From positions 1 to 51,728 of the forward strand of contig JAQBFV010000002.1 of the NCBI GenBank assembly GCA_032123035.1: 51,728 bases of DNA. Reading direction: 5' to 3'. This stretch comes from Betaproteobacteria bacterium (GTDB lineage Bacteria > Pseudomonadota > Gammaproteobacteria > Burkholderiales > SG8-41). Below, piece by piece: positions 4,191 through 46,462 of the stretch. The notes beneath the pieces were generated by a model, which made no database searches, had not been told where the DNA came from, and saw nothing but the letters and a program-made list of their open reading frames with translations. Position numbers and translations under genes: made by a program. Positions within the stretch are counted from its first letter, which is position 1, and every line of letters starts with the position of its first letter.

Positions 4191-4269
4191 GTGTTCAACG
4201 TTCAAGGTTCAATGTTCAATGTTCTACGCCAATACTGCAACTTTGAACCTTGAACGTTGAACCCGGAAC
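4191..4269. repeat. heptad-repeat hairpin element (GTTCAAN)n / (NTTGAAC)n
   Basis: 4193-4212 gttcaacgttcaaggttcaa is the exact reverse complement of 4243-4262. The arms have a 7-bp period. It fills the 92-bp gap between the ATPase and platform genes of the pilus operon. Confidence 0.85.
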
Positions 4270-4274
4270 GGGCA

Positions 4275-5981
4275 CTAGTCGAACCGCCCGGTAAGATCCA
4301 CGGTGCGGCGCACCTCGGCGAGGCTGGTGCTGCCGTCGATGACGCGCTGCAGCCCCTCCTCGGCAAGCGACCGGAATCCCTTGGCGAGCGCCGCGGTGCG
4401 GAGTTCCTTGGCGGTTCCCCGGCGCGCGACGAGCTCGTCCAGATCTCCGTCCATCACCAGCAGCTCCATTATGGCCATGCGGCCTTTGTAGCCCTTGTTT
4501 TCACAGTTCTTGCAGCCGACCGGGCGGTAGACGTAGGAAACTTTCTGTCCCAGCGAGCCGAAGAGCTGCCGCTCCTCCTTAGGCGGGGCATAGGCTTCTT
4601 TGCAGTGCGTGCAGAGCACGCGAACCAGCCGTTGTGCGATCACTCCAATGATGTTGCCAGCCATGATTTCCGGCGTTATGCCGATATCGAGCAGCCGGGG
4701 AAAGGTGCCCAGCGCAGAGTTCGTATGCAGCGTCGTGAACACCTGGTGGCCGGTCATCGCCGCGCGGAACGCCATCTCGGCTGTTTCCTTGTCGCGCACT
4801 TCGCCCACCAGGATGATGTCGGGATCCTGCCGCATGATCGAGCGAATCCCATCCGCGAACTCCATGCGCGCCACCTCGTTCACCGAGGTCTGTCGCATCA
4901 GTGTGAGCGGGTACTCAACCGGATCCTCCAGGGTCATAATGTTGACGGTCTCGTCGTTCACCTGTGCCAGAAGCGAGTAGAGTGTCGTCGTTTTTCCGCT
5001 GCCCGTGGGGCCGGTGACCACCAGTATGCCCTCGGGCCGCGCCAGCATCACGTCGAGCTTGGCTACGGTCTCCTTCGACAGATTCATGCGGTCCAGGCTG
5101 ATGATCGATTTTTCGCGGTCGAGCACGCGCAGCACGATGTTCTCGCCATAAATGGTGGGCTGTGCGGAGACCCGGAAATCGATCGGGCGGCCATTGAGCG
5201 TCAGCGACAACCGGCCGTCCTGGGGCGAGCGCGTCTCGGCGATGTTCATGCCGCTGACAACCTTGATGCGCACCGTGATGCCGGGCAGGTAAGTCTTGTG
5301 CAGGCTGCGCACGGTCTCGAGCACGCCGTCGATGCGGTAGCGAATGCGTAAGAAAGCATACTCCGGCTCGAAATGGATGTCCGAGGCGCTGCGTTTCACC
5401 GCGTCCACCAGCAGCGCGTTAACCAGCCGGACCATGGGCTGGGTGTACTCGTCACCACCGGCTACCTGAAGGCTCTCGTAATCGATCTCGCCGGTCTCGA
5501 TCTCCTTGAGGATGCCGTCGACCGAGAGCTCGTAGCCATAGAACTGGTCGATGTATTCACCGAGTTGGGCTTCGCTCGCGAGCTGGGTCTTGATCTCGAT
5601 TTGAGCCCCCAGCATGGCGCGCAACTGGTCCATCGCGACCACGTTGAAAATCTCGGTGGTGGCGATGGTGAGAATCTGGTCAGCAGGATCGAACGCAATC
5701 GGCAAGATCCGGTTGCGGCGCGCAAATTCCTGGGCCACCATCCTCAGCGCCTCGGGATCGGCAACCACGTGCCCGAGGTCGATCGCCTCCTGCCCAATGG
5801 TGCGCGCCATGATGTCGCGGATGGCGCTCTCGGTGACGAAACCGAGGCGCACCAGCAGGCGGCCGATGGGGATGTTGTTGTGGCGCTGCTCGGCCAGTGC
5901 GATCGAGAGCTGATCGGTGGTGATCAGCCCCTGCTGGACCAAAAGTTCGCCGAGACGGAGTTTCTTGCGCTGTTCAGCCAT
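4275..5981 (-). CDS. GspE/PulE/PilB-family secretion ATPase with N-terminal MshEN-type domain (MshE-like)
   Basis: 568 aa. Walker A is VVTGPTGSGKTTTLYS. Tetracysteine cluster CTHCKEAY...CKNCENKGYKGR. The N-terminus RLGELLVQQGLITTDQLSIALAEQ matches the MshEN c-di-GMP motif. Confidence 0.9.
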   Translation of the reverse strand: MAEQRKKLRLGELLVQQGLITTDQLSIALAEQRHNNIPIGRLLVRLGFVTESAIRDIMARTIGQEAIDLGHVVADPEALRMVAQEFARRNRILPIAFDPADQILTIATTEIFNVVAMDQLRAMLGAQIEIKTQLASEAQLGEYIDQFYGYELSVDGILKEIETGEIDYESLQVAGGDEYTQPMVRLVNALLVDAVKRSASDIHFEPEYAFLRIRYRIDGVLETVRSLHKTYLPGITVRIKVVSGMNIAETRSPQDGRLSLTLNGRPIDFRVSAQPTIYGENIVLRVLDREKSIISLDRMNLSKETVAKLDVMLARPEGILVVTGPTGSGKTTTLYSLLAQVNDETVNIMTLEDPVEYPLTLMRQTSVNEVARMEFADGIRSIMRQDPDIILVGEVRDKETAEMAFRAAMTGHQVFTTLHTNSALGTFPRLLDIGITPEIMAGNIIGVIAQRLVRVLCTHCKEAYAPPKEERQLFGSLGQKVSYVYRPVGCKNCENKGYKGRMAIMELLVMDGDLDELVARRGTAKELRTAALAKGFRSLAEEGLQRVIDGSTSLAEVRRTVDLTGRFD

Positions 5982-6009
5982 GGTGCGTGAAGCGGATGTC
6001 CACGGCTGC

Positions 6010-7227
6010 TTATTCTACCTGCGAGGCGAGTTTGCCAATGCGCTCTTGTGCCTGTGCGAGGTTGAAGTGGGTGTGCCCCTTGGCTGCAGCGAGCTCCGCC
6101 GCCTGCCGGTAGAAGCGGAGCGCAACCTTGGGCTGGCCGACGTGCTCGAGGCTGACCGCGAGGTTGTAGGCGTAATCCGGGTTCGTTGGCTCGAGATGAT
6201 GGGCCTGGAAGTAGGCGTGCTGCGCTGACGGCCACAGGGACTGGTCGGCATAAAGGTTGCCGAGCGTGAAGTAAAGGTACGGGGACGGCTCGCGCGCGAT
6301 CAGGCTTTTCAGGCGGGATTCCGCGGCGATGGGATCGGCACGGCCGAGCAGGCCGATCAGCCCGCTTTGCGCGAGCGCGTGCCGGGGATCGAGTTCCAGT
6401 ATGCGCATATAGCGCTTGGTGGCTTCCTCGCTGTCACCCTCTAGCGTTGCGATCGCGGCCAGGCCAAGCAGCGCGTCGCTGTTCCTCGGCTCGGCGCGCA
6501 GCAGCTGGTTGTAAAGGTTCTTGGCCTCGTCGAGTCGGTTTGCCTGAAGCGCAGCGTAGGCCCGAGGCAACAAGGGATTCATGGCGGGTTCGGGACTGCC
6601 GCGGCTGACCACGATCGTGTTGCGCTCCGGCGCGGTTGGCTCGGGCGCGGCTGCGCGCGGCGCCGGCCGCGGGGTTGGACGCGGAGTCGGCTGGACGACC
6701 GGCGTGGGCGCGCTCGTCGCGGTGCCGGCAACGCTGGGCGGAAGCACTGAGGCCGCAGGCAACGGAGCTGGAACGGGCGCGGCGGTTGGCGGCTGTGGTA
6801 GCTGCGTCAATGGGGGCAGCGGCCCCCTGGGCGCTACCGGTGCCTGGCGGATCAGCATGCTCGGCTGGAAAATCTGCAGCGCGACATAAACAGCGAATCC
6901 GATGGCGATCAGCACGGCAATGATGCCGAGCACGACAATCGGGTAATTGCGGAGATTGGCCCCTGCGCCAGACGACTGCGGCCGGGCTCCAGCCTGGAGC
7001 ACTGTCGCGGCCTGAGCCTGCTCCCGCGCCGCGCCAGGCGCCGGAGCCGGCTGCGCGGCCGCTGCGGGCTGGGGCGAGGCTAATGCCTCCCCAACTAGCG
7101 GCTCGAGCGACAACTCCGCATGAGCGGAAGCAGTGCTCGCATTCGCAGCTGCCGTGGCGGGCGCTTCCTGCCGCGCATCGCCACGGTCCTTGGCGGCCTT
7201 TTCCAAGGCCTTCATCAACAGGCTCAT
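6010..7227 (-). CDS. TPR-repeat protein with Pro/Ala-rich linker (MshN-position gene)
   Basis: 405 aa. N-terminal MSLLMKALEKAAKDRG, one TM (VVLGIIAVLIAIGFAVYVAL), a Pro/Ala-rich spacer and C-terminal TPR-like repeats (NLYNQLLRAEPRNSDALLGLAAI...). ATGA overlap with the secretin stop. Confidence 0.7.
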   Translation of the reverse strand: MSLLMKALEKAAKDRGDARQEAPATAAANASTASAHAELSLEPLVGEALASPQPAAAAQPAPAPGAAREQAQAATVLQAGARPQSSGAGANLRNYPIVVLGIIAVLIAIGFAVYVALQIFQPSMLIRQAPVAPRGPLPPLTQLPQPPTAAPVPAPLPAASVLPPSVAGTATSAPTPVVQPTPRPTPRPAPRAAAPEPTAPERNTIVVSRGSPEPAMNPLLPRAYAALQANRLDEAKNLYNQLLRAEPRNSDALLGLAAIATLEGDSEEATKRYMRILELDPRHALAQSGLIGLLGRADPIAAESRLKSLIAREPSPYLYFTLGNLYADQSLWPSAQHAYFQAHHLEPTNPDYAYNLAVSLEHVGQPKVALRFYRQAAELAAAKGHTHFNLAQAQERIGKLASQVE

Positions 7228-9164
7228 TGAGCCGCGCCCGCCGGTTCCGTCGATTCCTGGATTCGCTGGTTTGGCGGCCGCAGATCTTTCGGCACTTTGC
7301 TCAGATCGGGTTTGGGCTCCGGTTGCGGCAGGAAACGCTGGAAGAACTTGAGCTCGTCACTCTCGAGCGTCGGATTGGTGACGATGGTCGTCCGCAAGAA
7401 GATGATGAGCTCGGTCTTGGTGGACTCCTCCTTTTTCAGGGCGAAGGCTTCCCCGAGGTCGGGAACGTTGCCGACAAAAGGCACCTGGTCGCGGTTACTT
7501 TTCACGTCATCCTGCATCAGACCGCCAAGAACGACGGTCTGGCCATTGGCGATCTGCAGCACGGATTCCATCTCGCGGATCTGCACCTGGGGCACCGGGT
7601 TGGTGACGCCGGCTGCGGCCAGGCTCGGGTTGGGATCGTTGACAAACTTGATGACGCGCGAAATCGTGGGGCGAATCGTGAGCGAAACCCGCCCATCGTC
7701 GTTGATTTGCGGCGTCACCCCCATCACCACCCCAACGGCCACTGTCTTCGCAGTCGTGGTGAAGTTTACAAGCGAACTCGTTTGATTCTGGGTGGTGTCA
7801 GACTTAACCTCGAAGTAGACGACATTGTCCACGACCTTGAGCAGCGCGGTCTGGTTGTTGAGCGCCATCAACTTCGGGCTCGACAGGACCTTGGTGTTAC
7901 CGAACTCCTCGAGCAGCTTCACCGTGAGCTGGACTTGCCCTACGCGCACGTTGGCCTCGTTGTAGGAAAGCGCGAAGATGTTCGCAAGCTGAAGGCCACC
8001 CAGAGTAGTACCAAAGCCCGCGAGCTGGCCCAGCGTTGAGAAGGCGATGCCACCGCTTTCCGAGACGCGTGACCAGTCGACTCCCGCCTGGTAGTTACGC
8101 GAAAGCTGCACTTCGACGATGGTTGCCTCGATCAGCACCTGGCGCTGCATCGAGGTGACGATGCTGTCGATGTGCGCTTGGACCAGTTGATGCTGCTTTT
8201 CCGTGGCGTTAACCGTCACCGTTCCCGACATGGAATTCACGATAATGTCGTCCGGCAACAGCGAGGTGCGCTGCGCTCCCCCGGTTGCTGTGATGACCGA
8301 CGAGGCCAGCGTCGGCGCCCCCTGGCCGGCGCGACTGGCGGCTTCTATCTGCTTCGTGCGCAACTCCTGTTCCTGCTTGACCAGCGCGAGGCGCTCGGCC
8401 CGGGCCTGGGCATCGAGGCTCTGCAGGCGGGTCGAGTTCAGGATGGCGCGGATGTTTTCGCGCAGTTCCCCCCAGAAATCGTTGCGTGAGGTCATGGTCA
8501 CGGTCGTGCTCGACCCCCCGGCCCCACCCGGCGCGGCTGTGGCGCCAGTTCCGCCACTCGCGGCACCAATCTCACCGGAAACGCCAATCGTCGAATTGGT
8601 ATTGCGGACCATGTTCACGTAGCCGACGCGGTACGTCTTGACGTAAGACACATCGGGCGAAACGATGATCGTGTTGCCCTCCACGCGGTAACGCATGCTC
8701 ACCTGCATGGTGACACGTTCCAGTATCGCCGGCAGCGTTTCATTGACCGCATTCAAGCTCACCAGGCCGGTGATCCCGGGGTGGATATCGATGTTCTGCT
8801 TGGTGTCGCGCGCCAGGGCGAGGAGCAGATCCTTGACCTGCACTTCGTTCACCACCACGGTGTAGGTCTGCGGCTTGACCGTCGGCTTCGGCGGGGGCAC
8901 GAATGTGCTGACGCGCGCCGGGGGCGGAATGGCCCGGTCCGCCTCGGGCTTTGGTCTGGGCTTTTCGAGCCCGATGTGGCCTTTAGAAGTCGGGATATAC
9001 GGCTTGTAGGCCGAGCAGCCCGCGACCATCACGCTGACAATGAGCGGGACTATCCACCCGCGTACCGAGAATACCGGGAACAGACCCAATTTCAGCAGCG
9101 CGGTGTCACTCAGGCGTGACTTCGCAGAGCCGTGACTGCCTTCTGATTCCGCTACAGATCGCAT
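7224..9164 (-). CDS. secretin (GspD/PilQ/MshL family), probable lipoprotein
   Basis: 646 aa. Lipobox-like LIVSVMVAGCSAY. The C-terminal secretin signature is VVLGGLMQD...VPFVGNVPDLGEAFALKK. Confidence 0.85.
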   Translation of the reverse strand: MRSVAESEGSHGSAKSRLSDTALLKLGLFPVFSVRGWIVPLIVSVMVAGCSAYKPYIPTSKGHIGLEKPRPKPEADRAIPPPARVSTFVPPPKPTVKPQTYTVVVNEVQVKDLLLALARDTKQNIDIHPGITGLVSLNAVNETLPAILERVTMQVSMRYRVEGNTIIVSPDVSYVKTYRVGYVNMVRNTNSTIGVSGEIGAASGGTGATAAPGGAGGSSTTVTMTSRNDFWGELRENIRAILNSTRLQSLDAQARAERLALVKQEQELRTKQIEAASRAGQGAPTLASSVITATGGAQRTSLLPDDIIVNSMSGTVTVNATEKQHQLVQAHIDSIVTSMQRQVLIEATIVEVQLSRNYQAGVDWSRVSESGGIAFSTLGQLAGFGTTLGGLQLANIFALSYNEANVRVGQVQLTVKLLEEFGNTKVLSSPKLMALNNQTALLKVVDNVVYFEVKSDTTQNQTSSLVNFTTTAKTVAVGVVMGVTPQINDDGRVSLTIRPTISRVIKFVNDPNPSLAAAGVTNPVPQVQIREMESVLQIANGQTVVLGGLMQDDVKSNRDQVPFVGNVPDLGEAFALKKEESTKTELIIFLRTTIVTNPTLESDELKFFQRFLPQPEPKPDLSKVPKDLRPPNQRIQESTEPAGAAQ

Positions 9165-9227
9165 CGCGTTGTTTGTCCCCTGATCGAGCCATCCCTTGCT
9201 GTAAGGGGGGTCTTTGCCCGGGCGGGG

Positions 9228-10967: not shown

Positions 10968-11006
10968 CGCCAGTTCTCCGGCCGTTATGCGTCAGGCGTC
11001 CGAGGC

Positions 11007-12470: not shown

Positions 12471-12503
12471 GGCTTGCCCTCGGTAACCTAACGTTATTGT
12501 ATC

Positions 12504-12518
12504 GCAAAGGCTTTTCCA
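12504..12518 (-). promoter_or_regulatory. candidate sigma-54 (-24/-12) promoter upstream of the response regulator gene
   Basis: The minus strand reads cTGGaaaagcctTTGCg, i.e. TGG-N8-TTGC spacing as in TGGCAC-N5-TTGC. The GC element lies about 34 nt upstream of the GTG start at 12470. Confidence 0.35.
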
Positions 12519-12536
12519 GGGCCGGTGCGGCGCGCG

Positions 12537-14238: not shown

Positions 14239-14308
14239 GGATTCGGGATTCGGGATTCGGGATTCGGGATTCGGGATTCGGGATTCGGGATTCGGGATTC
14301 GGGATTCG
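14239..14308. repeat. perfect microsatellite (GGATTCG)x10
   Basis: Ten uninterrupted 7-bp units, counted from the sequence, lie 10 nt upstream of the epimerase ATG. A degenerate inverted partner (ctgaatccggggtcttggatcctgagtcc) lies at about 14355-14388. Confidence 0.95.
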
Positions 14309-14409
14309 GGAGACGGCGTCCCGATCACGGCCCGGCGAAGTCCATGAGCGGTTCTGCTGAATCCGGGGTCTTGGATCCTGAGTCCTGCCGCAAAGCGGGT
14401 ATCACTCCG

Positions 14410-17708: not shown

Positions 17709-17765
17709 AATGAGTAATGGGTCTTAGGTGGTTTTACCCATCACTCATCACCCATTAGTCATCAC
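17709..17765. repeat. short hairpin element of the GTAATGR / YCATTAC heptad type
   Basis: 17711-17722 tgagtaatgggt pairs with 17750-17761 acccattagtca (12 bp, 1 mismatch). It lies between mlaB and the next ABC gene. Confidence 0.6.
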
Positions 17766-21046: not shown

Positions 21047-21136
21047 TGAACCTCTCGGCGCCAAGACGCCAAGAAGAGGAGCAATCGAAAGCAGCGGGCA
21101 CTCACAGTCCCTTGGCGCTCCGGGCAGCCTTGGCGG
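21047..21136. repeat. hairpin element of the CGCCAAGA (8-bp period) type
   Basis: Left arm ggcgccaagacgccaagaag, right arm cccttggcgctccgggcagccttggcgg. 21058-21065 gcgccaag pairs perfectly with 21111-21118 cttggcgc. Related to the element at 44363-44620. Confidence 0.7.
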
Positions 21137-21389: not shown

Positions 21390-22696
21390 CCACGATCCGA
21401 CGCCTGGCGAGCGACCAGCCCGATTTCGATGCCCGGTTACAGGAGCTGCTTGCGTTCGAGTCGACGCAGGATGCGGCCGTCGAGAGCGCAGTGGCGGGAA
21501 TTCTTGCCGATGTTAAAACGCGGGGTGATGCGGCGCTTCTCGATTACACGCGGCGCTTCGACCGAGTCGAGGCGGCATCAGTGGCCGCGCTGGAAGTTCC
21601 GGCCGCGGAGGCGCGCGCGGCGCTCGGTCGAATTCCCGCGAAAACGCGCAAGGCCCTCGAAGCGGCCGCGGCGCGGGTGCGCACCTTTCACGAAAAGCAG
21701 CTCACCCACTCGTGGAGCTACCGGGAAGCGAACGGTACGGAGCTTGGCCAGCGCGTCACGGCGCTCGATCTCGTTGGCATCTACGTGCCCGGCGGCAAGG
21801 CGGCCTACCCCTCGTCCGTGATCATGAACGCGTTGCCGGCCAGGGTGGCGGGCGTGCGCGAAATCATCATGGTGGTGCCGACGCCTGGCGGCGAACGAAA
21901 CGACCTCGTGCTCGCCGCCGCGTCCATCTGCGGGGTCGAGCGGGTGTTCACCATCGGCGGCGCGCAGGCGGTGGCTGCGCTTGCGTACGGCACCGCAACG
22001 GTGCCCGCCGTGGACAAGATCGTTGGGCCGGGCAACGCTTACGTCGCCGCCGCGAAGCGGCGCGTTTTCGGGGTCGTCGGCATCGACATGATCGCCGGCC
22101 CCTCGGAAGTTGTGGTGGTGTGTGACGGAAGCGTTGCGCCCGACTGGGTTGCGATGGACCTCTTCGCCCAGGCGGAGCACGACGAGTTGGCGCAGGCGAT
22201 CCTCATCACGCCCGATTTGCGCTTCCTTGAGGCGGTGGCTGCCAGCATCGAGCGGCAGCTCGCAGACATGCCGCGGCGCGACGTGATCGCTGCGGCCCTG
22301 CACAAGCGCGGCGCGCTGATCGGGGTGCGTGACCTCGATGAGGCCTGCGAAGTGGTCAACCGGATTGCGCCGGAGCACCTCGAGCTGGCGGTCAAAGATC
22401 CGGATGCCTTGCTGCCGGCGATCCGGCATGCGGGCGCGATTTTCCTCGGACCCTACAGTTCCGAGGCGCTCGGGGATTACTGCGCGGGGCCGAACCATGT
22501 TCTGCCCACGTCACGTACCGCGCGTTTTTCCTCGCCGCTCGGGGTCTACGACTTCCAGAAGCGGTCGAGCGTCATTCGCATATCGAAGGAGGCCGCGCGC
22601 GAGCTCGGCGCCATTGCCGCGGAGCTTGCCCGTGGCGAAGGCCTGACCGCGCACGCCCGGTCGGCCGAATACCGCATGAAGATCGAAAAAGCATAG
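21386..22696 (+). CDS. hisD: histidinol dehydrogenase
   Basis: 436 aa. ATGA overlap with the hisG remnant. Typical HisD blocks [17 protein letters not shown] and [10 protein letters not shown]. Confidence 0.95.
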
Positions 22697-22789
22697 ACAC
22701 GAAGGACGCGAAGGACACAAGGGACAGCCGGACCGAATCGCTTTCTGTTCGGGTACGCCTTCGTGTCCTTGGTGTCCTTTGTGTCTTCG
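22696..22789. repeat. hairpin element with 9-bp period (GACNCGAAG)n / (GTCCTTNGT)n
   Basis: GAC recurs at 22696, 22705, 22714 and 22723. 22696-22705 gacacgaagg is the reverse complement of 22758-22767 ccttcgtgtc. It fills the hisD-hisC gap. Confidence 0.8.
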
Positions 22790-22798
22790 CTCTGACTT

Positions 22799-24508: not shown

Positions 24509-24519
24509 GGCGGTCGCCC

Positions 24520-24624
24520 GTTCCGAGTTCAAGGTTCAAGGTTCAAAGTTCAAAGTTCAAGGGTCAAATCCGAGGCTTTAGCGCAAGACATGAAACCTTG
24601 AACGTGGAACTTTGAACTTGGAAC
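24520..24624. repeat. heptad-repeat hairpin element (GTTCAAR)n / (YTTGAAC)n
   Basis: The outer 18 positions (24520-24537 with 24607-24624) pair as 16 Watson-Crick plus 2 G:T pairs. The first 20 nt, gttccgagttcaaggttcaa, are identical to 40966-40985. Confidence 0.85.
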
Positions 24625-24634: not shown

Positions 24635-25319
24635 ATGACCGACGTCGCAGTGGTTGATTACGGAATGGGGAATCTCCGCTCCGTGGCAAAGGCCGTGGAG
24701 CGCGTCGCCCCTCGGCTGACGGTCGCCGTCACCAACGATCCGGAAACGGTTAGGCGCGCCGCGCGGGTGGTCTTTCCGGGACAGGGGCGCGATGCCCGAC
24801 TGCATGCGCGAGCTCGAGGCGCGCGGGCTCCGTGAGGCCGTCGTCGAGGCCGCGCACGCCAAGCCGTTTCTCGGAATCTGCATCGGGCTGCAGATGCTGT
24901 TCGAGCACAGCGATGAGGGCGATGTCGCCGGCCTTGGCCTGCTGCCGGGGAAAGTGCGGCGCTTTTCCGCCGAGAAAGTGACCGATGCCGAGGGCGTACG
25001 GCTGAAGGTGCCGCACATGGGCTGGAACCAGGTGAGCCAGACGCTGCCTCATGCGCTGTGGAAGGGCATTCCGCAAAACGCCCGTTTCTACTTCGTGCAC
25101 AGCTATTTCCCGGAGCCCGCGAATCGCGGCATTGTCGCCGCGGAGGCGGCCTACGGCGTGTCGTTCGCTTGCGCGTGCGCTCGAGACAATGTCTTTGCCG
25201 TGCAGTTTCATCCAGAGAAGAGCCAGGCCGCCGGTTTGCAGCTGCTGGCCAATTTCGTGGGTTGGCAGCCCAGTTTACGCCGCGCGGCGCAACCGGGTTC
25301 CGCTTCACCTGCAACTTAA
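24635..25319 (+). pseudogene. hisH: imidazole glycerol phosphate synthase glutaminase subunit hisH, interrupted by a 1-nt frameshift
   Basis: ORF 24635..24835 ([17 protein letters not shown]...VVFPGQG) and ORF 24792..25319 (MPDCMREL...GICIGLQ...HSY...FHPEKS) together make one HisH. The frames switch in the GGGG run at 24784-24787. Confidence 0.8.
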
Positions 25320-25329: not shown

Positions 25330-26145
25330 ATGCTGATCATTCCCGCAATCGACCTCAAAGACGGAAAGTGCGTGCGCCTCAAGCAGGGCGTGATGTCCAC
25401 CGCTACAGTGTTCTCGGATGACCCGGGGGCCATGGCCAAGCAATGGCTGGCGCAGGGGGCGCGGCGACTGCACGTCGTCGATCTCAACGGCGCGGCGGCG
25501 GGCCGGCCCAAGAACGAGAACGCGATCAAGGCCATCGTAGCGGCGGTGGGCGACCAGCTCCCAGTGCAGCTCGGCGGCGGGGTTCGCGATCTCGACACCA
25601 TCGAGAAGCTCCTCGACTCGGGCATAAGCTACGTCATTGTTGGCACCGCGGCGGTAAAAACGCCCGGCTTCCTGCACGATGCCTGCACGGCGTTTTCCGG
25701 GCACGTGATGGTGGCGCTTGATGCGAAGGACGGCAAGGTCGCGGTCGACGGCTGGTCGAAGATGACGGGCCACGAGGTAGCGGACCTTGCGAAAAAATTC
25801 CAGGACTACGGCGTCGAGGCAATTATCTACACCGACATCGGGCGCGACGGCATGATGAAGGGCGTGAATGTCGAGGCGACCGTCGCGCTTGCGCGCCAGC
25901 TGACAGTTCCCGTTATCGCAAGCGGAGGCATTACCGGCCTGGACGACATCAAGGCGCTGTGCGCGGTCGAGCGCGAGGGCATTACCGGCGCAATAACCGG
26001 GCGCGCGGTGTACGAGGGAAAGCTCAACTACGCGGAAGCCCAGAAGCTCGCCGACCAACTCAGCGCCAATGGCGCCGAAGACGGAAAGCAGAAGGCGGAA
26101 GGCAAAAAACGAAAGGGTGAAGGAAAACGAAAGGATGAGGGATAG
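25330..26145 (+). CDS. hisA: ProFAR isomerase HisA, with Lys/Glu/Gly-rich C-terminal tail encoded by a repeat element
   Basis: [20 protein letters not shown] is the canonical start. After ...[17 protein letters not shown] the ORF runs about 25 codons further ([24 protein letters not shown]) into the purine-rich repeat arm. Confidence 0.9.
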
Positions 26146-26196
26146 GGCGCAGCGAGGGCTGTTACTTCTGCCTTCTTTCTTCTGCCTTCTTCCTTA
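26077..26196. repeat. purine-rich / pyrimidine-rich hairpin element (GAAGGNN)n vs (CCTTCTN)n
   Basis: 26090-26100 agaaggcggaa pairs with 26166-26176 ttctgccttct (10 Watson-Crick pairs plus 1 G:T). ttctgccttct recurs at 26180-26190. The element spans the hisA 3' end to 5 nt before the hisF ATG. Confidence 0.7.
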
Positions 26197-26975: not shown

Positions 26976-27090
26976 AACTCTGTGTTCCGTGTTCCGGGTT
27001 CAATGTTCCAGGTTCAAAGTTCTGCGTAATGCGACTAAACTCTGAACTCTGAACTCAGAACTCAGAACTCTGAACGCTGAACTTGGAAAC
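26976..27090. repeat. heptad-repeat hairpin element (GTGTTCC/GGTTCAA)n vs (CTGAACT/CAGAACT)n
   Basis: The left arm (26981-27022) and right arm (27038-27090) both have a 7-bp period, and the arms are imperfectly complementary. The right arm overlaps the possible hisI start codons. Confidence 0.75.
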
Positions 27091-28096: not shown

Positions 28097-28167
28097 GAAC
28101 GGTAAGTGGTGAGCGGTAAACGGCCGCCGCCCCCGCGGACTTACTGGTCACGGTTCACCGATCACGG
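28097..28167. repeat. heptad-repeat hairpin element (ACGGTAA/GTGGTGA)n vs (TCACGGT/TCACCGA)n
   Basis: Left arm gaacggtaagtggtgagcggtaaacgg and right arm ttactggtcacggttcaccgatcacgg flank a GC-rich centre. It lies between tatA and tatB. Confidence 0.7.
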
Positions 28168-28174
28168 CTTCTCC

Positions 28175-33764: not shown

Positions 33765-33892
33765 GTGCGAGCGGTAAACGGTAAACGGTAAACGGTGAGC
33801 GGTAGACGGCAAACCGCGAAGCCTGAATCCGATACTAGAGGTACCGAGCGAGCGATGTTCTTCCCTTCACTGTTCACCGTTCACCGTTCACG
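33765..33892. repeat. heptad-repeat hairpin element (CGGTAAA)n vs (CGTTCAC)n
   Basis: Left arm 33765-33816 contains ggtaaacggtaaacggtaaacggtgagcggtagacgg. Right arm 33863-33892 is cccttcactgttcaccgttcaccgttcacg. It lies in the petC-sspA gap. Confidence 0.8.
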
Positions 33893-34512: not shown

Positions 34513-34622
34513 GTGAATCGTGAATCGTGAATCGTGAATAGTGAATGGTGAAAGGCGAATAACGCGGGTCTGGCATTCGGGGTTTCTCCGATTCCCCATT
34601 TCCTATTTCCCGTTTCCGCTTT
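34513..34622. repeat. heptad-repeat element (GTGAATN)x7 with a degenerate inverted arm (ATTTCCN)n
   Basis: 34513-34561 reads GTGAATC x3, GTGAATA, GTGAATG, GTGAAAG, GCGAATA. The opposite arm 34574-34622 also has a 7-bp period but is only partly complementary. It lies in the sspA-sspB gap. Confidence 0.8.
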
Positions 34623-34625
34623 GAT

Positions 34626-35116: not shown

Positions 35117-35191
35117 GCCGGCATAGCTCAGTGGTAGAGCAACCGCCTTGTAAGCGGTAGGTCGTCTGTTCGAGTCAGACTGTCGGCACCA
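35117..35191 (+). tRNA. tRNA-Thr (anticodon UGU), CCA encoded
   Basis: Hand-folded cloverleaf. Acceptor GCCGGCA/TGTCGGC, D arm AGCTCAGTGGTAGAGC, anticodon stem ACCGC/GCGGT with loop CTTGTAA, T arm GTCTG-TTCGAGT-CAGAC, then ACCA. Confidence 0.85.
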
Positions 35192-37179: not shown

Positions 37180-37201
37180 GGAACCTAGAGATAGATTCCC
37201 T

Positions 37202-40221: not shown

Positions 40222-40301
40222 TTTAAAGAAACGGGGCCCGGCACCGCGCTATAATTAACGGTGCCGCTTGCGCGCATTTTCGCGGAGCCGCAATTGCCCT
40301 C

Positions 40302-40697
40302 ATGCGCAGCAGTTTCCGCATCCTGGCCGCCTTTCTGCCGTGCGTGGCGCTGTCCGCCTGCACGACGGCGCTCCATGGCTACCAATCCTCGGGCGGCGGC
40401 TCGACGACGACGGTGACGTCCGCGAGCGTGGCTGCATTTGCGTCGAGCTCAAACGCGAGCGTGTCGTTCGTCTCCGGGCCGAGAGTCCCCGCGAATGCCC
40501 CGGGCGGTCAGCTCACGCTGAGCAGCAGCTCCGCCGGGGCGTTAGGGGTCGCCGTTATCATCGGCGTCCTCGCGAGCTATATCGTGGAAGAGGAGGGGCC
40601 GACACCGCTGCCCGCGGGTACCAGGATCTTGCACACCTGCTCCTGCTACGGCTACCAACCACCGGCAACGAATGAACCGGTAATGAGTAATGAGTGA
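40302..40697 (+). CDS. small lipoprotein, Ser/Thr/Gly-rich, function unknown
   Basis: MRSSFRILAAFLPCVALSACTT contains the lipobox LSAC. The last six codons (PVMSNE) are supplied by the following repeat element. Confidence 0.5.
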   Translation: MRSSFRILAAFLPCVALSACTTALHGYQSSGGGSTTTVTSASVAAFASSSNASVSFVSGPRVPANAPGGQLTLSSSSAGALGVAVIIGVLASYIVEEEGPTPLPAGTRILHTCSCYGYQPPATNEPVMSNE

Positions 40698-40769
40698 TGA
40701 GTAATGCGCGGGAAAAACCGCTACTCGCGCCCGTTCACCCATTACCCATTACCCATTACCCATTACCCG
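40679..40769. repeat. heptad-repeat hairpin element (GTAATGA)n vs (ACCCATT)x4
   Basis: The left arm is ggtaatgagtaatgagtgatgagtaatg. The right arm holds four perfect ACCCATT units (40737-40764). The arms are complementary except for one A/C position per heptad. Confidence 0.85.
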
Positions 40770-40770
40770 A

Positions 40771-40965
40771 ATGAAGCTGAGAGAAATTCTGAAATCGCCG
40801 GTGTTCGCACTTGGCCACAAGTGGGACTTCAAGAAACGCACCGACGCCTATGAGTCGGATACGACCGCGCTCATCCGGCGCATGCTGGACGAGGCCGCGA
40901 TACGCGACGACCAGGACTGGGCGTGGGAGCGCTGGCGCAACGACGCGAGCGCCCTTAAGAAGTGA
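40771..40965 (+). CDS. small hypothetical protein (64 aa), possibly DUF3460-like
   Basis: ORF MKLREILKSPVFALGHKWDFKKRTDAYESDTTALIRRMLDEAAIRDDQDWAWERWRND. It is bracketed by two hairpin elements. The family guess is from memory only. Confidence 0.4.
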   Translation: MKLREILKSPVFALGHKWDFKKRTDAYESDTTALIRRMLDEAAIRDDQDWAWERWRNDASALKK

Positions 40966-41050
40966 GTTCCGAGTTCAAGGTTCAAAGTTCAAGGTCGAAG
41001 ACGTAGGTCGTGTCCTTTGAACGTTGAACCTGGAACATTGAACCTTGAAC
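40966..41050. repeat. heptad-repeat hairpin element (GTTCAAR)n / (YTTGAAC)n
   Basis: 40973-40985 gttcaaggttcaa is the exact reverse complement of 41038-41050 ttgaaccttgaac. It lies between convergent genes and is followed by the GC hairpin 41051-41066. Confidence 0.85.
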
Positions 41051-41057
41051 GCCGCCG

Positions 41058-41999
41058 TCAGGCGGCGTGATGGCTGACTACCTCCAGCACACGCGTCCCG
41101 TCCGCGTTCCTGACCTCGGTGTGTATCCCCGCGAAGCTGCGCCCCTCGTGAAAACGTTGCGAGCGGATCTTTAGCGAGCGGCCCTGCCCGGGGCTGATGA
41201 ACCAGGCCGAAATGGCGGAGAGCCGGGGATGCCGCGGCGCCGCGGCCTGCGCGGTCACGGCCGCCAGTCCCAGCAGCAGGCCGCCCTGCACATGCCCGAC
41301 GCGGTTGCCGTGCTGGGGGCCGATTTTCACGTGACAACGCGCGCCATCGGCGGATGCCTGCGGCAGCGCGCTCCAGAAATGCTCAATGAAAGCGTGGCGC
41401 CGATCGGCGCGTCGGAGCGCCGAGTCGCACGCTTTCATTATGGCGCGTTCGCCTGATTCGAGCCCCTCCTCGTCAAAGGCCACGACCCGGCCGCGGCCTT
41501 TGCGCTGCCACGGGAGCGGCGCAAGCTTCACGCCCGCCGGCGCGGGCAACACCACGAAGCTACCCATGGCATGGCACACCGGCTTGCCGCCGGCATGAAT
41601 CGTCACGCTGGAGAGGGCCTCGCGCACCGCGCCGCCCGTGGTGAAGCTCTCAAGACGCGACTTGGCGCTCAGCTTGCCCTGCAATGGCTGGCCAGTGAAC
41701 TGCGCATGCAGGTGCACCGTGGCCTGGCGCACGCCGCGCTTGATTTTAAGGCGTGGTGCCGTCGCGAGCGCAGTGTCGAGCAGCACGCTAAAGGCGGTAA
41801 GCGCGATGGAGCCGTCGGTGGCGCGGCAATGTGGGCCATCGGGCATCGTTTCCTCGAGACGGTCGGTGCCGATCCGTGGCCACTCGAGACCGAGAAAGTA
41901 GCCGGGGAAGTGAAAGCCGGGGAGACGGTTCGCCGTCAGCGCTGAGATGACACGGCGGCGAATGCTGGCTGCGGCGGGAGCGTTGGGGGTCTTGCGCAC
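41058..41999 (-). CDS. PaaI/hotdog-fold thioesterase family protein (apparently double hotdog)
   Basis: 313 aa with a GTG start whose position is uncertain. The C-terminal half has GNRVGHVQGGLLLGLAAVTAQAA, typical of PaaI-type thioesterases. The N-terminal half has a similar length and pattern. Confidence 0.55.
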   Translation of the reverse strand: MRKTPNAPAAASIRRRVISALTANRLPGFHFPGYFLGLEWPRIGTDRLEETMPDGPHCRATDGSIALTAFSVLLDTALATAPRLKIKRGVRQATVHLHAQFTGQPLQGKLSAKSRLESFTTGGAVREALSSVTIHAGGKPVCHAMGSFVVLPAPAGVKLAPLPWQRKGRGRVVAFDEEGLESGERAIMKACDSALRRADRRHAFIEHFWSALPQASADGARCHVKIGPQHGNRVGHVQGGLLLGLAAVTAQAAAPRHPRLSAISAWFISPGQGRSLKIRSQRFHEGRSFAGIHTEVRNADGTRVLEVVSHHAA

Positions 42000-42071
42000 C
42001 CGCGGATTCTACGTGATCGATCGGCGCCGGGGCGCGCTCGTCACGCGCGTAGGTTAAAATCACACGCGAAA

Positions 42072-43256: not shown

Positions 43257-43389
43257 GCCGGGCTGTACCGAGAAGCGCCGACCCTGAACTGCGTTAAACT
43301 TAAAGCTTCGCGCCGGCTTGGCCTTGCGGCGTAGAGCCGGCGACACGGCGGCAACCCGACGAGCACTTCATCCTCTCAGGAGCACGAAT

Positions 43390-44364
43390 ATGAAGATCGC
43401 GGTCATTGATGACTATCAGGACGCTTTCCGCAGTCTCGAGTGTTACGCCAGCCTCGAGGGGCACGAGGTCGTCGTCTTCAACGATACGGAAAAGGATCCG
43501 GCGAAGCTTGCCGAGCGATTGAAGGACGCCGACATCGTGCTGCTCACCCAGCAGCGCTCGCGTTTTCCGCGCGCGGTCATCGAGCGCCTGCCGAAGCTCA
43601 AGCTGATCAGCCAGACCGGAGGAAACGTCGCCCATATTGACAAGGCAACGTGCACCGAGCGCGGCGTTGTGATCTCGGGCGCGGGTAGAGGCAATCCCAG
43701 CCCGACTGCGGAGCTAACGTGGAGCCTGATCCTCTCTGCGCTTCGTTCCATTCCGTACGAGGTTCAGCGGTTGAAGGAAGGCCATTGGCAATCCACGGTC
43801 GGGGACAGCGTAAAGGGCAAGATTCTCGGCGTCTACGCGTTCGGGAAGATCGGCAGCGTGGTTGCGAAAGTGGGCAAGGCGTTCGAGATGCGCGTCGTGT
43901 GCTTCGGCCGCGAGGCCTCGACCGCGCGCGCCTGTGAAGCGGGATTCGACGTCGCGGGCAGCCGCGATGAGTTTTTCTCGTCCGCCGATGTTCTGACGCT
44001 GCACCTGCCGCTGAACCCGGAGACGCGTGGCATCGTCAAGCGCGCGGACCTCGCGCGCATGAAGCCAGCTGCGCTTATCGTGAATACGAGCCGTGCTCCG
44101 TTGATCGAGGAGGGCGCGCTGGTGGAAGCGCTCAAGGAGGGAAGGCCGGGGCGCGCCGCGGTGGACGTGTACGAGGACGAGCCGGTTTTAGGCGCGAATC
44201 ACCCGCTTATCAAGATGCCCAACGTCGTGTGCACGCCGCACCTCGGCTACGTGGAAACGGGAAATTACAGCTCCATCTACGCTACGGCGGTCGAGAATAT
44301 CGTCGCCTTCATTTCGGGAAAGCCGATTAACGTGCTCAACCCCGAAGCGCTTAACAAGAACTGA
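43390..44364 (+). CDS. D-isomer-specific 2-hydroxyacid dehydrogenase family protein
   Basis: Internal ATG gives MKIAVIDDYQD. NAD fold GVYAFGKIGSVVA, and C-terminal VVCTPHLGY catalytic His context. Confidence 0.85.
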   Translation: MKIAVIDDYQDAFRSLECYASLEGHEVVVFNDTEKDPAKLAERLKDADIVLLTQQRSRFPRAVIERLPKLKLISQTGGNVAHIDKATCTERGVVISGAGRGNPSPTAELTWSLILSALRSIPYEVQRLKEGHWQSTVGDSVKGKILGVYAFGKIGSVVAKVGKAFEMRVVCFGREASTARACEAGFDVAGSRDEFFSSADVLTLHLPLNPETRGIVKRADLARMKPAALIVNTSRAPLIEEGALVEALKEGRPGRAAVDVYEDEPVLGANHPLIKMPNVVCTPHLGYVETGNYSSIYATAVENIVAFISGKPINVLNPEALNKN

Positions 44365-44620
44365 ACCGCCAAGACGCCGAGAGAAGCAAAAACAGTAATT
44401 GAACCGCGGAGGCGCGGAGAGAAGCAGAATCGGATCTGAACCGCCATGACGCCAAGGCCGCCAAGAAGAACAGATCTCAATACACGGCCCACCGTTTACC
44501 GTTCACGGAATTTGCAGAACCGCCAAGCAAAAGGAAAGGCTCAGACTCTTATGCTCTCTGTGTTCTCGGCGGCCTCGGCGGTTCGATAATGTTTTTGTAG
44601 GTTTCCCTTGGCGGTGAAGG
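44363..44620. repeat. composite repeat region of the GAACCGCCAAG type (four direct heads plus inverted copies)
   Basis: gaaccgcc(a/g)(a/t)g occurs at 44363, 44401 (gaaccgcggag), 44438 and 44517. The inverted copy ctcggcggttc is at 44574-44584, and cccttggcgg at 44606-44615. Related to 21047-21136. Confidence 0.75.
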
Positions 44621-44640
44621 TTTTCGTGTAAGGAGAAGTA

Positions 44641-46323
44641 ATGGCAAAGATGGGATGTGGTCGTGCCGCGGTTGAGGCATTGCGCTCTGCGGGCGTGACA
44701 AAGATATTCGGATTGATGGGCTCGAGCGTGCTCGAGATGTACGACGCGCTCTATGACATGAAAGACATGGCGTACATCGGCGTGCGGCACGAAAATTGCG
44801 GGGCCCATATGGCGGACGCCTACGGACGCATCACTCAGGCGCCCGGGCTATTTATTTGCGGGCAGGCAGGGCCCGGGTCGGCCAACATGCTGCTCGGGCT
44901 TGCAGCGGCAAAGTTGGCCTATTCACCGCTGGTGGTGATTACAGGCCTTCCCTCGACCGAGCACCTGGGCCGCGACTCATTCCAGGAGATCGACCAGCAG
45001 ACGCTGTTCCTCCCGGTGACCAAACGCGTGATGACGGTGCCGCGCGCGGACCGCATACCCGAGTTCATCATGGAGGCGTTCCGGATTGCTGACGCCGGGC
45101 GCCGCGGTCCGGTTGTGGTGCAGATACCGCGAGATCTCTTCAACCAAGACATAGATGTTGCCATCCCGCCGCCGGGTTCCAGCGCGAAAGTTACCGGTGG
45201 CGCGGTGGATCGCGCGACACTCGACAAGGTGAAGTCGATGCTCATGGCAGCGCGCGCCCCGATCATCCACGCGGGTGCCGGAATCAAGTGGAGCCGTGCG
45301 ACGGCGCCGCTCCTCGCGCTCGCGGAAAAGCTCCAGCTCCCGATCACCATGTCGGCCGCCCATGGCGACCTCGCGCCGATCGACCATCCGCTCTATGCCG
45401 GGACTGTCGGGGCGCGCGGGAACGCAGTCGCGAGCGGGCTCATGCGCGAGGCCGACGTCGTGCTCGCGCTCGGGACGCGCCTCGGGTTCAATACCACGCG
45501 CTACAACCACGACCACCTCTCGCCGTCGGCGAAGATCGTGCAGGTGGACATCGACCCGGTGGCGATTGGCCGTTATTTCCCGGTAGCGGTCGGGATCGCC
45601 GGTGACGCCGGCGTGGTGACGGCGGCCCTGGCGGGCGCGGTCGAGGCGATTCCGCCGGACCGGGTTCCGTGGAAGGCTCGCAATGAGAAGTTCGTGAAGG
45701 AACGTCAGCAGCTGTGGCAGACGCGGGCCGAGGCGGGCAGTCGAAACGGCAAACCGCTGCACCCGGACACGATCTTTGCCGAGCTGCGCAAGGTGGCCCC
45801 GCGGGATGCGCTGTTTACCATCGACGCCGGCACAACGTGCCTGCAGGCAACCGATCAGCTGCCGTATTACACGCCCCCGGCGCTGGTCGCGCCGCTTGAC
45901 TGCGGCAACATTGGTTTTTCGTACGCCGCAGGTCTCGGCGCGAAAACGGCCGCCCCGGAACGCACGGTCATCTCCCTCATGGGAGACGGCGGTTTCGGCA
46001 TGACAATGGGCGAAATGAACACTGCGGTCATGCACGACATTCCGACGATTGCACTCGTCATGGACAACGGGACGTGGGGCGCGGAGATCGCCTACCAGCG
46101 CGACTTCTACAACCGCCGCTACATCGGCGCGCACGTGCAATCGCCGCGCTTCGACGAGGTGATGAAGCTCTGCGGGGGCGTCGGCTATTTCGCGACCGAA
46201 CCGGGCGAGACGGGGGACGCCATCAACCAGGCCATGAAGGAGCGCAAGCCCGCGGTGATCCACGTCAAGGTCGACCCGGAAGCGGTGATCAGCTTCAGGA
46301 CCGATGCCCTCAAAAAACGGTGA
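44641..46323 (+). CDS. thiamine-pyrophosphate-dependent enzyme (acetolactate synthase-like family)
   Basis: 560 aa with an AAGGAG SD. TPP-binding motif GDGGFGMTMGEMNTAV...MDNGTWG. Confidence 0.85.
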   Translation: MAKMGCGRAAVEALRSAGVTKIFGLMGSSVLEMYDALYDMKDMAYIGVRHENCGAHMADAYGRITQAPGLFICGQAGPGSANMLLGLAAAKLAYSPLVVITGLPSTEHLGRDSFQEIDQQTLFLPVTKRVMTVPRADRIPEFIMEAFRIADAGRRGPVVVQIPRDLFNQDIDVAIPPPGSSAKVTGGAVDRATLDKVKSMLMAARAPIIHAGAGIKWSRATAPLLALAEKLQLPITMSAAHGDLAPIDHPLYAGTVGARGNAVASGLMREADVVLALGTRLGFNTTRYNHDHLSPSAKIVQVDIDPVAIGRYFPVAVGIAGDAGVVTAALAGAVEAIPPDRVPWKARNEKFVKERQQLWQTRAEAGSRNGKPLHPDTIFAELRKVAPRDALFTIDAGTTCLQATDQLPYYTPPALVAPLDCGNIGFSYAAGLGAKTAAPERTVISLMGDGGFGMTMGEMNTAVMHDIPTIALVMDNGTWGAEIAYQRDFYNRRYIGAHVQSPRFDEVMKLCGGVGYFATEPGETGDAINQAMKERKPAVIHVKVDPEAVISFRTDALKKR

Positions 46324-46334
46324 CCCACCACGAA

Positions 46335-46462
46335 AAATGGTGATGAATAATAGTGATGATTAATGGTGATGAGAAATGGTGATAGAAAGCCGAGTGTTTG
46401 GCTAGGGGGGTTGCCCATCACCAGTACCTCATCACCAGTATCTCATCACCAGTTCTCATCAC
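46335..46462. repeat. hairpin element with 13-14-bp period (..GTGATGA..)x4 vs (CATCACC..)x4
   Basis: GTGATGA-like cores at 46340, 46353, 46366 and 46379. CATCACC cores at 46416, 46430, 46444 and 46457. 46365-46373 ggtgatgag can pair with ctcatcacc at 46428-46436 or 46442-46450. It lies between convergent genes. Confidence 0.85.

Follow-up and report, generated by a model that had tools for sequence, protein, structure and literature searches.

Tandem arrays of 7-nt units with the sequences CCCCAGT, TTGGTCA and CAACAGT make up the short tandemly repeated repetitive (STRR) sequences of cyanobacteria. For STRR heptamer hairpins, e.g. that of the hupS-hupL spacer of Nostoc/Anabaena, a part in the stability of transcripts or in the coupling of translation has been proposed (PMC2670836). 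The over-representation of intergenic heptamer arrays in bacteria has been noted since 2007 or earlier, a date given by Rehm et al. (2015, PMC4692102), and there is no agreed function or origin for the arrays. In Xanthomonas, the unit GGGAATC forms 70-75 convergent array pairs per genome, which are intergenic and lie mostly between co-directional genes; their length varies by species, their type is preserved, and no link to mobile elements and no regulatory role were found (Rehm et al. 2015, PMC4692102). Geobacter metallireducens has four classes of paired, opposite-strand tandem sites (8-mer GTTGCTYN, 8-9-mer TCTCCGTS[Y], 7-mer MTYCTGA and 5-mer CCYTC), which were named global regulator binding sites and read as IHF/HU sites (Aklujkar et al. 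2009, PMC2700814), and the single unit TAACTGA of the Beggiatoaceae occurs in 169 direct sets and one indirect set (MacGregor 2015, PMC4679880). Here we analyze a family of intergenic hairpin elements, the arms of which are such arrays, in a 51,728-nt stretch of DNA (contig JAQBFV010000002.1 of assembly GCA_032123035.1; hereafter the window) from a metagenome-assembled genome (MAG) of an uncultured betaproteobacterium. The closest species representative found shares only 81% identity in HisF. Our results show that this family is real, strongly non-random and hypermutable, with slippage dynamics and a positional history that can be followed through its relatives.

An earlier annotation made from the letters alone (the original prediction) listed at least 15 of these hairpins (Table 1). 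A tandem-repeat-armed family was indeed found at the positions it gave, but the number was generous, with about ten convincing hairpins. At approximately 13 of the 15 loci, a pair of tandem arrays in opposite orientations is present, with units mostly of 7 nt; the loci other than the ten or so hairpins carry paired or solitary arrays with arms that are no longer complementary. Tandem Repeats Finder (TRF) assigned the paired arrays a period of 7, but also of 8, 9 and 13-14 nt, in agreement with the claim that unit sequence and period differ between loci, and a repeat search recovered the perfect 20-bp inverted repeat at 4193-4212 / 4243-4262. The window has 25 arrays of at least three copies, 18 arrays of period 7 and 14 arrays with a reverse-complement partner, against means of 1.1, 0.17 and 0, respectively, in 30 dinucleotide shuffles; arrays are approximately 20-100 times commoner in the window than in shuffles, i.e. 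the enrichment over shuffled sequence is strong. Using a detector in which every TRF array was reverse-complemented and aligned to the 130 nt on either side of it, we found seven stringent hairpins in the 51.7 kb window. From 80 other proteobacterial his loci, 1.33 Mb in total, the same number was obtained, so that the density in the window is roughly 25-fold higher. A lag-7 periodicity scan of the window revealed no elements beyond those listed, and its strong signal was confined to the flagged spacers.

Next, we compared the RNA folding of each element with 200 shuffles. Ten of the 15 elements folded far better than their shuffles (z of -3.6 to -8.4), and five (21047, 26077, 28097, 33765 and 34513) did no better, so that the greater stability of the stems relative to shuffled controls holds for two thirds of the list. 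The z-score of element 14239 is due mostly to G-U self-pairing of its perfect array, its right partner being weak.

The view that no described family fits these elements was found to be wrong, as the STRR (PMC2670836), Xanthomonas (PMC4692102) and Geobacter (PMC2700814) repeats show the same architecture. The elements are STRR-type simple-sequence-repeat hairpins, in which two opposed short-unit arrays surround a unique loop; the tandem units of ~7 nt are confined to intergenic DNA, and the inverted arrays can form hairpins (10 of 15 with z <= -3.6). They share with the cyanobacterial STRRs the tandem 7-nt units, the intergenic or intercistronic position and the ability to form hairpins, but belong to another phylum and have other units: CCCCAGT, TTGGTCA and CAACAGT are not those of the window, which has GTTCAAG, GGTRAAC, GTRATGA, GTGAATC, GGATTCG and others. 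The STRR accounts cited here, as far as they extend, describe few unit types and report no polarity rule of the kind described below. The Xanthomonas arrays resemble the present ones in forming convergent pairs (G-rich on the + strand, then G-rich on the - strand), which is the polarity seen here, and the (GGGATTC)x10 array of the window differs from GGGAATC only in base order. However, each Xanthomonas genome has a single unit consensus, which was examined as a G-quadruplex motif, whereas the window has approximately seven families, mostly without G-tracts. Geobacter likewise has several classes in one genome, variable pair spacing and some pairs inside operons (proB-proA), but fixed copy numbers of 3-5 were reported there, evolution and polymorphism being outside that study. 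The Beggiatoaceae arrays also lie a few nt upstream of starts, in spacers without canonical ribosome-binding sites, but they are direct repeats of one unit sequence. New here are the many unit families in one genome, the presence of GTTCAAG hairpins also in phage contigs, and the polarity rule. A literature search by unit sequence returned nothing relevant.

The elements had also been likened to repetitive extragenic palindromic (REP) sequences and bacterial interspersed mosaic elements (BIMEs). The elements and REP/BIMEs alike are extragenic palindromes between co-directional or convergent genes, and by analogy they likely share the same mode, as stem-loops in operon transcripts. However, REPs have a conserved 20-40-nt consensus, usually with a tetranucleotide head, a link to the REP-associated tyrosine transposase (RAYT) and arms that are not tandem repeats. 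No REP consensus of 20-40 nt is common to the 15 elements, and the absence of a single consensus, which had been anticipated, is confirmed by their division into approximately seven families. In the description by Di Nocera (2013, PMC3733652), REPs carry a GTAG or CGTC tetranucleotide at one end; inspection of the element termini by eye, which start with GTTCCG, GGTAA, GTGAAT, GACACG and similar sequences, revealed no such head. In addition, the loops are unrelated, and a domain scan found no transposase or transposase-like domain in the window, and none in the 20-kb loci of the relatives. Membership in the REP/BIME class was thus not supported, and the elements are best filed as a multi-family variant of the STRR/heptamer-repeat hairpin kind. 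No catalogued family in Rfam 15 matched them: only a tRNA-Thr reached the gathering threshold, and the elements gave chance-level matches to miRNA precursors far below it.

The small non-coding size, inverted ends, position in spacers and presence/absence differences between relatives are shared with miniature inverted-repeat transposable elements, known as MITEs, e.g. Correia/NEMIS, ERIC and RUP. However, MITE copies have a common interior and target-site duplications, whereas the window elements share arm units only. Loop homology between window loci was sought as a MITE signature, and none was found; copies of the GTTCAAG type share arm units only, and a conserved interior among copies is absent in the window and present in the viral contig L341 described below. 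All-against-all alignment grouped the 15 elements into approximately seven sequence families (Table 1). Each of the four GTTCAAG-type elements has a single copy of the terminal 13-mer GTTCCGNGTTCAA, at the outer end (4 matches versus 0.02 expected); the 13-mer is itself a variant of the repeat unit. Elements 21047 and 44363 have CGCCAAGACGCC..AGA..GCAA in common. Identical stretches at different loci, as originally noted, are therefore present, and the shared GTTCCGNGTTCAA suggests common descent of the GTTCAAG-type arms, while MITE-like copying is not demonstrated.

To assess variation between near-identical strains, we used contig JAQBCG010000310.1 of MAG GCA_032125385.1 (L001), which is 99.5% identical to window positions 16207-36957. 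All multi-base indels between the two lie inside elements and are multiples of 7 nt: +7 at 17738, +21 at 28152, +7 at 34533 and -14 at 34591. The L001 allele of element 17709 has one extra 7-nt unit, and that of element 28097 has three extra GTTCACC units, with a minimum free energy (MFE) of -43.4 versus -29.5 kcal/mol in the window; element 34513 differs by two whole-unit indels. Over 11.2 kb, the strains L086 and L087 are distinguished only by a single substitution and by one AACCTTG unit (7 nt) in the hisF-hisI hairpin. These results show that slippage adds whole units to the arrays or removes them. Of the two processes invoked originally, local slippage is thus directly confirmed, and copying between loci, or their common descent, is only plausible. 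Strain alleles shift the predicted stability both ways, and a change in one arm of an element is not matched by one in the other.

Unit-number polymorphism (+7, +21, +7, -14; 7 nt) is a trait of simple-sequence contingency (phase-variation) loci. A second such trait, a promoter or 5'-coding position, is seen only for the 14239 array, in a divergent promoter region; the other elements follow the stops of housekeeping-operon genes. The array at 14239-14311 is the only perfectly homogeneous one of the window and is a candidate phase-variable site.

Relatives of the window were recovered by a PetC search (L086, L088, L089, L212, L213 and L214; syntenic, 74-86% PetC identity). The element-free spacers hisC-hisB, hisE-tatA and tatB-tatC are conserved in length and sequence in these relatives. 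GTTCAAG-type hairpins at hisB-hisH and hisF-hisI occur in all six species, with recognisably conserved loops and differing unit numbers, and the hisF-hisI spacer is significantly structured in each of the six (z = -2.7 to -6.3). The tatA-tatB spacer is a minimal 34 nt in L212, with a short simple hairpin, GTGAGGAGT..CTCCTCAC, and has expanded GTGAGGG units in L213 and GGTRAAC-type units in the clade of the window. The sspA-sspB spacer is 4-17 nt long and element-free in the outgroups L212, L213 and L214, and holds arrays of 111-129 nt in four species, with GTGAATC, GTGCAGA/CATCACT or GGTGAGC/GGTCACG units depending on the species. The element at hisA-hisF differs from species to species and is near-perfect in some of them (a 9-mer in L213, z = -8.4; L088, z = -5.3), and petC-sspA has no spacer at all in L213. 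Orthologous spacers thus show the presence/absence differences that had been proposed as a check, and some sites persist across species while others were gained or replaced.

The two arms of an element appear to evolve apart. At long-lived loci, we detected no within-species co-evolution of arms, a left arm being no closer to its own right arm than to that of another species, and arm-to-arm correction is accordingly unsupported. In element 40679, a perfect ACCCATT x4.6 array faces GTAATGA, indicating arm-specific homogenisation. Arms are therefore homogenised separately, which leads to unit drift and decaying complementarity between them. Altogether, comparison of the sequences points to a history of birth as a near-perfect inverted array, arm-by-arm slippage and homogenisation, and decay of pairing at some sites, with positions that are long-lived and elements that are now and then gained or replaced.

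The placement of the elements follows gene boundaries. The spacers that bear them are co-directional in 11 cases, convergent in two and divergent in one, and an element extends from 0-12 nt past the stop codon to 1-20 nt ahead of the next start, i.e. the predicted location in gaps between co-directional or convergent genes holds as stop-to-start occupancy. The extra length of these spacers is accounted for by the elements, which total ~1.7 kb, or ~23% of the window intergenic DNA, and all period-7 arrays of at least three copies (n = 18) lie within spacers or at gene ends. Spill into coding ends was confirmed in two of the cases proposed. HisA has 271 aa, compared with 248-258 aa in five relatives, and its extra lysine/glycine/glutamate-rich tail is encoded by the purine-rich GAAGG arm (26077-26145); since the tail is translated from a repeat arm, slippage of the element alters the C-terminus of the protein. 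The lipoprotein gene at 40302 terminates within the first units of element 40679. A recognisable Shine-Dalgarno sequence is absent between the pyrimidine-rich 3' arm and the start codon of tatB (28168-28174), sspB (34623-34625) and hisC (22790-22798), and clear GAGGAG/GAGGA motifs are present in the element-free spacers hisE-tatA and tatB-tatC. This absence hints at translational coupling or structure-dependent initiation.

Similar arrays were found far beyond this lineage. A metagenome scan for GGTRAACGGTRAACGG returned at least 120 loci, and among the matches listed the GC content spans 43-69%, many other unit types occur on the same contigs, period 7 accounts for 254 of 342 arrays (in the his background, 6- and 9-mers are as many), and approximately 70% of the GGTRAAC seed arrays are solitary. 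A scan of viral contigs for three GTTCAAG units returned 76 loci. One of them, L347 (IMG/VR contig 3300018005_000271), is clearly phage, with tape-measure and minor tail proteins. Another, L341 (IMG/VR 3300009634_000151, 1-2792), has no PHROG match; five spacers in succession each contain a GTTCAAG hairpin there, and the loops of the five resemble one another (form GTTGAAACC..CTCTTTCCCAAC). In both contigs, a GTTCAAG-type hairpin lies in nearly every spacer between small genes. When viral sequences were scanned for GGGAATC x2, just 10 arrays of three or more units were recovered, none of them paired. In the stretches of L341 and L347 that were inspected, no obvious Shine-Dalgarno sequence lies between hairpin and start codon.

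A hairpin reads alike on both strands, and which of its arms is G-rich is therefore an intrinsic, strand-independent property. Across all data, the G-rich arm is nearly always the 5' one: it is 5' in 134 and 3' in 20 of 154 skewed hairpins, and when counted by unit family the ratio is 79 to 16 (p = 3.5e-11). GTTCAAG arrays have a 3'-side partner in 59 cases and a 5' partner only in none, and among the metagenome matches listed the partner of GGTRAAC arrays is 3' in 35 and 5' in five. GC skew is the main signal (134 versus 18), an excess of A over T being secondary. No polarity bias was seen for generic inverted repeats in the background loci (perfect, 10 bp or longer; 90 versus 107). The polarity of the hairpins hints at a constraint that acts on nucleic acid as it is synthesised or becomes exposed in the 5'-to-3' direction. 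Our guess is that selection may act against a C-rich arm that emerges unpaired in untranslated RNA, where it could serve as a Rho loading site; alternatively, the hairpins could originate by fold-back from G-rich 3' ends. Stop triplets in 5' arms were rejected as a cause of the polarity (76 versus 59 hairpins, with the TGA of GTTCAAG in the 3' arm), and loop length does not correlate with reversed polarity (medians of 30 versus 26.5 nt).

A reverse-polarity minority, with the C-rich arm 5', includes hairpins on L103 (Ga0184624_10003090; 4231-4265 and 4991-5025), L132 and L146. The two on L103, a single 5-kb soil contig, have very short loops. Some lineages may thus break the polarity rule.

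The most economical reading of these results, to which we assign a probability of about 0.5, is that the elements are slippage-driven stem-loops acting in operon mRNAs. Each would have arisen as a near-perfect inverted array, via inverted duplication of an array or insertion of a copy. Transcribed in operon mRNAs, the arrays would fold into long stem-loops, with an action that may resemble that of REP/BIME elements or of the cyanobacterial STRR hairpins. Such stem-loops could be a barrier to 3' exonucleases or could attenuate read-through, and would hold the upstream stop and the downstream start physically close, by which, we propose, an operon can accommodate an insertion of 100 nt. The effect would be stronger or weaker depending on the number of units. 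The structure kept at hisF-hisI in all six species and the tight stop-to-start fit of the spacers support this role. Several results weigh against it. For five of the 15 elements, folding was no better than that of the shuffles, and in none of the four species with arrays at sspA-sspB is that spacer structured; as pairing is not kept everywhere, neutral decay fits as well as function. Sense and antisense RNAs fold equally stably, the difference in MFE scattering about zero, so no G-U signature marks a transcribed strand, and G-U strand asymmetry was dropped as an RNA-level signal. Most hairpins lack a U-tract, the preferred 7-nt period is not accounted for by any result here, and a small sample of solitary GGTRAAC arrays, the orientation of which to flanking genes bears on the Rho idea, was split 3 versus 3 (from crude open reading frame [ORF] calls).

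Two narrower functions were set aside. Termination was rejected on the small number of hairpins with T-tails (a T-rich tail in only 15-20 of 85 hairpins of the phage set); a consensus scan of the 38-48 kb stretch called none of its four elements as an intrinsic terminator, and the stems, 20-50 nt and AT-rich, are unlike the short GC-rich stems of terminators. Pairing of GGTGA-type units with the 16S rRNA 3' tail does not fit GTTCAAG, GACACGAAG or CGCCAAGA.

A purely neutral origin is a serious rival of the mRNA stem-loop role, and we consider it possible, though doubtful. The arrays would be a neutral or selfish by-product without a cellular role, in which slippage of units of at least 5 nt escapes mismatch repair, only spacers tolerate the result and the hairpin form reflects the mode of birth. 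The loss of complementarity at several loci, with sspA-sspB never beating chance in four species, agrees with this, as do the independent variation of the arms, the alleles that move stability both ways, the absence of strand asymmetry in the folds, the ~70% of solitary GGTRAAC arrays among the metagenome matches listed, and the Xanthomonas arrays without a regulatory role (Rehm et al., PMC4692102). However, hisF-hisI is structured in all six species despite unit turnover, the strong polarity, absent from generic inverted repeats, requires a directional cause, and hairpins fill nearly every spacer of compact phage genomes, where junk is costly. A directional cause is the core of another suggestion, which we advance only tentatively, namely that the hairpins are a distinct, widespread class produced or filtered by one directional process, and not just a loose set of slipped repeats. 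The marks of this class, over ~100 unrelated units in bacteria and phages, would be a 5' arm that is nearly always G-rich and a period that is nearly always 7 nt. The process could be fold-back, or reiterative synthesis, starting at G-rich 3' ends; it could be the work of an enzyme dedicated to it; or it could be selection that removes exposed C-rich RNA on which Rho would load.

It is unlikely that the elements are MITE/REP-like non-autonomous elements, in which the array arms would be multi-site terminal inverted repeats for a transposase encoded elsewhere and slippage would be secondary. Terminal inverted repeats demand a fixed arm orientation, the 13-mer GTTCCGNGTTCAA lies at the outer end of four GTTCAAG elements, and elements form paralogue families; a 111-129-nt element was gained in sspA-sspB where outgroups have 4-17 nt, hairpins of hisA-hisF were replaced by unrelated perfect ones, and L341 has same-loop copies in every spacer. 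On the other hand, loops are unrelated between window loci, many sites are stably orthologous across six species, and neither the window nor the related 20-kb loci encode a transposase. At the one gained site, sspA-sspB, comparison of the flanks with L212, L213 and L214 by eye revealed no target-site duplication. Moreover, the polarity tracks base composition over ~100 unrelated units, GTTCA being 5' in one family and 3' in another. Protein-binding arrays with one monomer per unit, for IHF/HU-type proteins as in Geobacter (PMC2700814) or for S1, Csp or CsrA-type proteins as for the Beggiatoaceae heptamers (PMC4679880), are the published reading for those systems; regular spacing and inverted arrays do resemble iterons, and a few units (GTTCAAG, GGTGAAC, GTGAGC and GTGAAT) recur on unrelated contigs among the matches listed. 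This is nevertheless improbable here, with approximately seven unrelated unit sequences in one window and ~100 overall, units that change between species at the same site, a 7-bp period that places successive sites on different faces of B-DNA, and no candidate protein encoded nearby. Structures at the DNA level (cruciform, G-quadruplex or H-DNA) that act on supercoiling, replication or recombination would explain the strand symmetry of the hairpins, equally stable on both strands; (GGGATTC)x10 at 14239 is a G3N4 pattern like the quadruplex-forming Xanthomonas GGGAATC (PMC4692102), and element 26077 pairs a purine arm with a pyrimidine arm. Such structures seem very improbable, as most units lack G-tracts, imperfect arms with loops of 13-46 nt are poor at cruciform extrusion, and placement tracks gene boundaries and not replication landmarks.

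As a natural experiment, this lineage is unusually dense: elements make up about a quarter of the window intergenic DNA, and its graded relatives document how elements are born, slip by whole units, are homogenised one arm at a time, decay and are replaced at orthologous spacers. Should the hairpins act in operon mRNAs, the number of units would provide a fast, reversible dial on the relative expression of neighbouring housekeeping genes (his, tat, pet and ssp). The polarity rule is a concrete, falsifiable handle on mechanism and, together with the dominance of the 7-nt period, most worth pursuing. The elements also shift gene ends (HisA tail, lipoprotein stop) and are a likely source of assembly and annotation errors in MAGs.

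Table 1. Repeat-armed elements of the window (x, copy number; z, RNA folding z-score)
Positions	Family	Arms	Setting	Folding and other features
4191-4269	GTTCAAG	GTTCAAS x5 / reverse-complement x3.6 hairpin	fills 92-nt T2SSE (MshE-like)-T2SSF spacer, both genes - strand	z = -7.2; 30-nt arms 90% complementary, 20 bp perfect; terminal GTTCCGGGTTCAA
14239-14388	single	perfect (GGATTCG)x10.4 array, also readable as (GGGATTC)n, plus degenerate partner 14355-14388	divergent spacer epimerase gene/mlaF, ~16 nt upstream of epimerase start	z = -3.6; TRF 100% matches, score 146; partner score only 14
17709-17765	GTRATGA	GTAATGR / CATCACY hairpin	mlaB (STAS)-ABC ATPase gene spacer	z = -4.1
21047-21136	CGCCAAGA	weak element, CGCCAAGA x2 / CCTTGGCG x2	after murA	z = -0.4; TRF only 2 copies per arm
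22696-22789	single	9-nt units, GACACGAAG x3.4 / CCTTCGTGT x3.7	hisD stop to 9 nt before hisC start	z = -8.4; MFE -58.4 kcal/mol
24520-24624	GTTCAAG	GTTCAAG x5.9 / GAACTTG x3.7 hairpin	hisB-hisH spacer	z = -4.0
26077-26196	single	purine-rich GAAGG-type / CTTCT-type arrays	HisA tail in left arm; ends 4 nt before hisF	z = -1.5
26976-27090	GTTCAAG	GTTCCNG/GTTCAAN x6 / AACTCWG x6.6 hairpin	hisF-hisI spacer	z = -3.9
28097-28167	GGTRAAC	GGTAAGT/GGTGAGC/GGTAAAC vs GGTCACG/GTTCACC arrays	tatA-tatB spacer	z = -0.2
33765-33892	GGTRAAC	CGGTAAA x6.1 / TTCACCG x3.7, large loop	petC-sspA	z = -1.5 element, -2.7 whole spacer
34513-34622	single	GTGAATC x5.9 / ATTYCCC x4.4, arms no longer complementary	sspA-sspB	z = +0.85
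40679-40769	GTRATGA	GTAATGA x3.9 / ACCCATT x4.6 hairpin	overlaps last 18 nt of 131-aa lipoprotein gene; ends 1 nt before putative 64-aa ORF	z = -6.7; one A-C mismatch per unit
40966-41050	GTTCAAG	GTTCAAG x3.3 / TTGAACC x4.9 hairpin	begins right after stop of putative 64-aa ORF, which converges on thioesterase gene	z = -4.2; 23-nt arms 91% complementary; terminal GTTCCGAGTTCAA
44363-44620	CGCCAAGA; inner part GGTRAAC	composite ~250-nt hairpin; left, 2.6 copies of 38-nt unit (TRF period 38) with CGCCAAGA motifs; right, CTCGGCGG/CTTGGCGG motifs; inner CCGTTTACCGTTCACGG stretch	2-hydroxyacid dehydrogenase/thiamine pyrophosphate (TPP)-enzyme gene spacer	z = -3.7; MFE -98 kcal/mol
46335-46462	GTRATGA	13-14-nt unit (two heptamers), GAAAAATGGTGAT x4.3 / CATCACCAGTATCT x3.4	convergent TPP-enzyme/CMD genes	z = -6.0

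The minus strand of the window carries an MSH/type-IV-pilus-like cluster, and the plus strand mlaFEDCB, an ABC-2 transporter, bolA-murA, hisDCBHAFIE, tatABC, petABC, sspAB and tRNA-Thr; a second ABC-2 system and assorted metabolic genes complete the content. The tRNA-Thr (anticodon TGT, 35117-35191) lies directly 3' of sspB and is the sole Rfam/ARAGORN match in the window. The hisH gene (24635-25318) is frameshifted near 24784, with GGGG in place of the GGG of L001, in which HisH is intact (227 aa); the extra G is either a homopolymer assembly error or the mark of a recent pseudogene. The region 47588-50037 has a low GC content (43-57% versus ~63% elsewhere), is without repeat hairpins and holds a tandem two-gene duplication; the first gene of each copy encodes a small protein with a cysteine motif (48058-48462 and 49112-49447) and the second a PilZ-domain protein (48548-48886 and 49308-49847).

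The 195-nt gap between elements 40679 and 40966 (40771-40965) contains a putative unannotated 64-aa ORF (start codon ATG at 40771, stop codon TGA at 40963-40965), the frame of which was taken from the sequence and by analogy with relatives. The putative product has no Pfam match, and a called gene of 64-67 aa occupies the same place in L086, L088, L089, L213 and L214. Finally, small GC-rich hairpins abut repeat hairpins at two sites, GGGCGGTCGCCC after the hisB stop (24509-24519) and GCCGCCGTCAGGCGGC after element 40966 (41051-41066), and both are kept in relatives.

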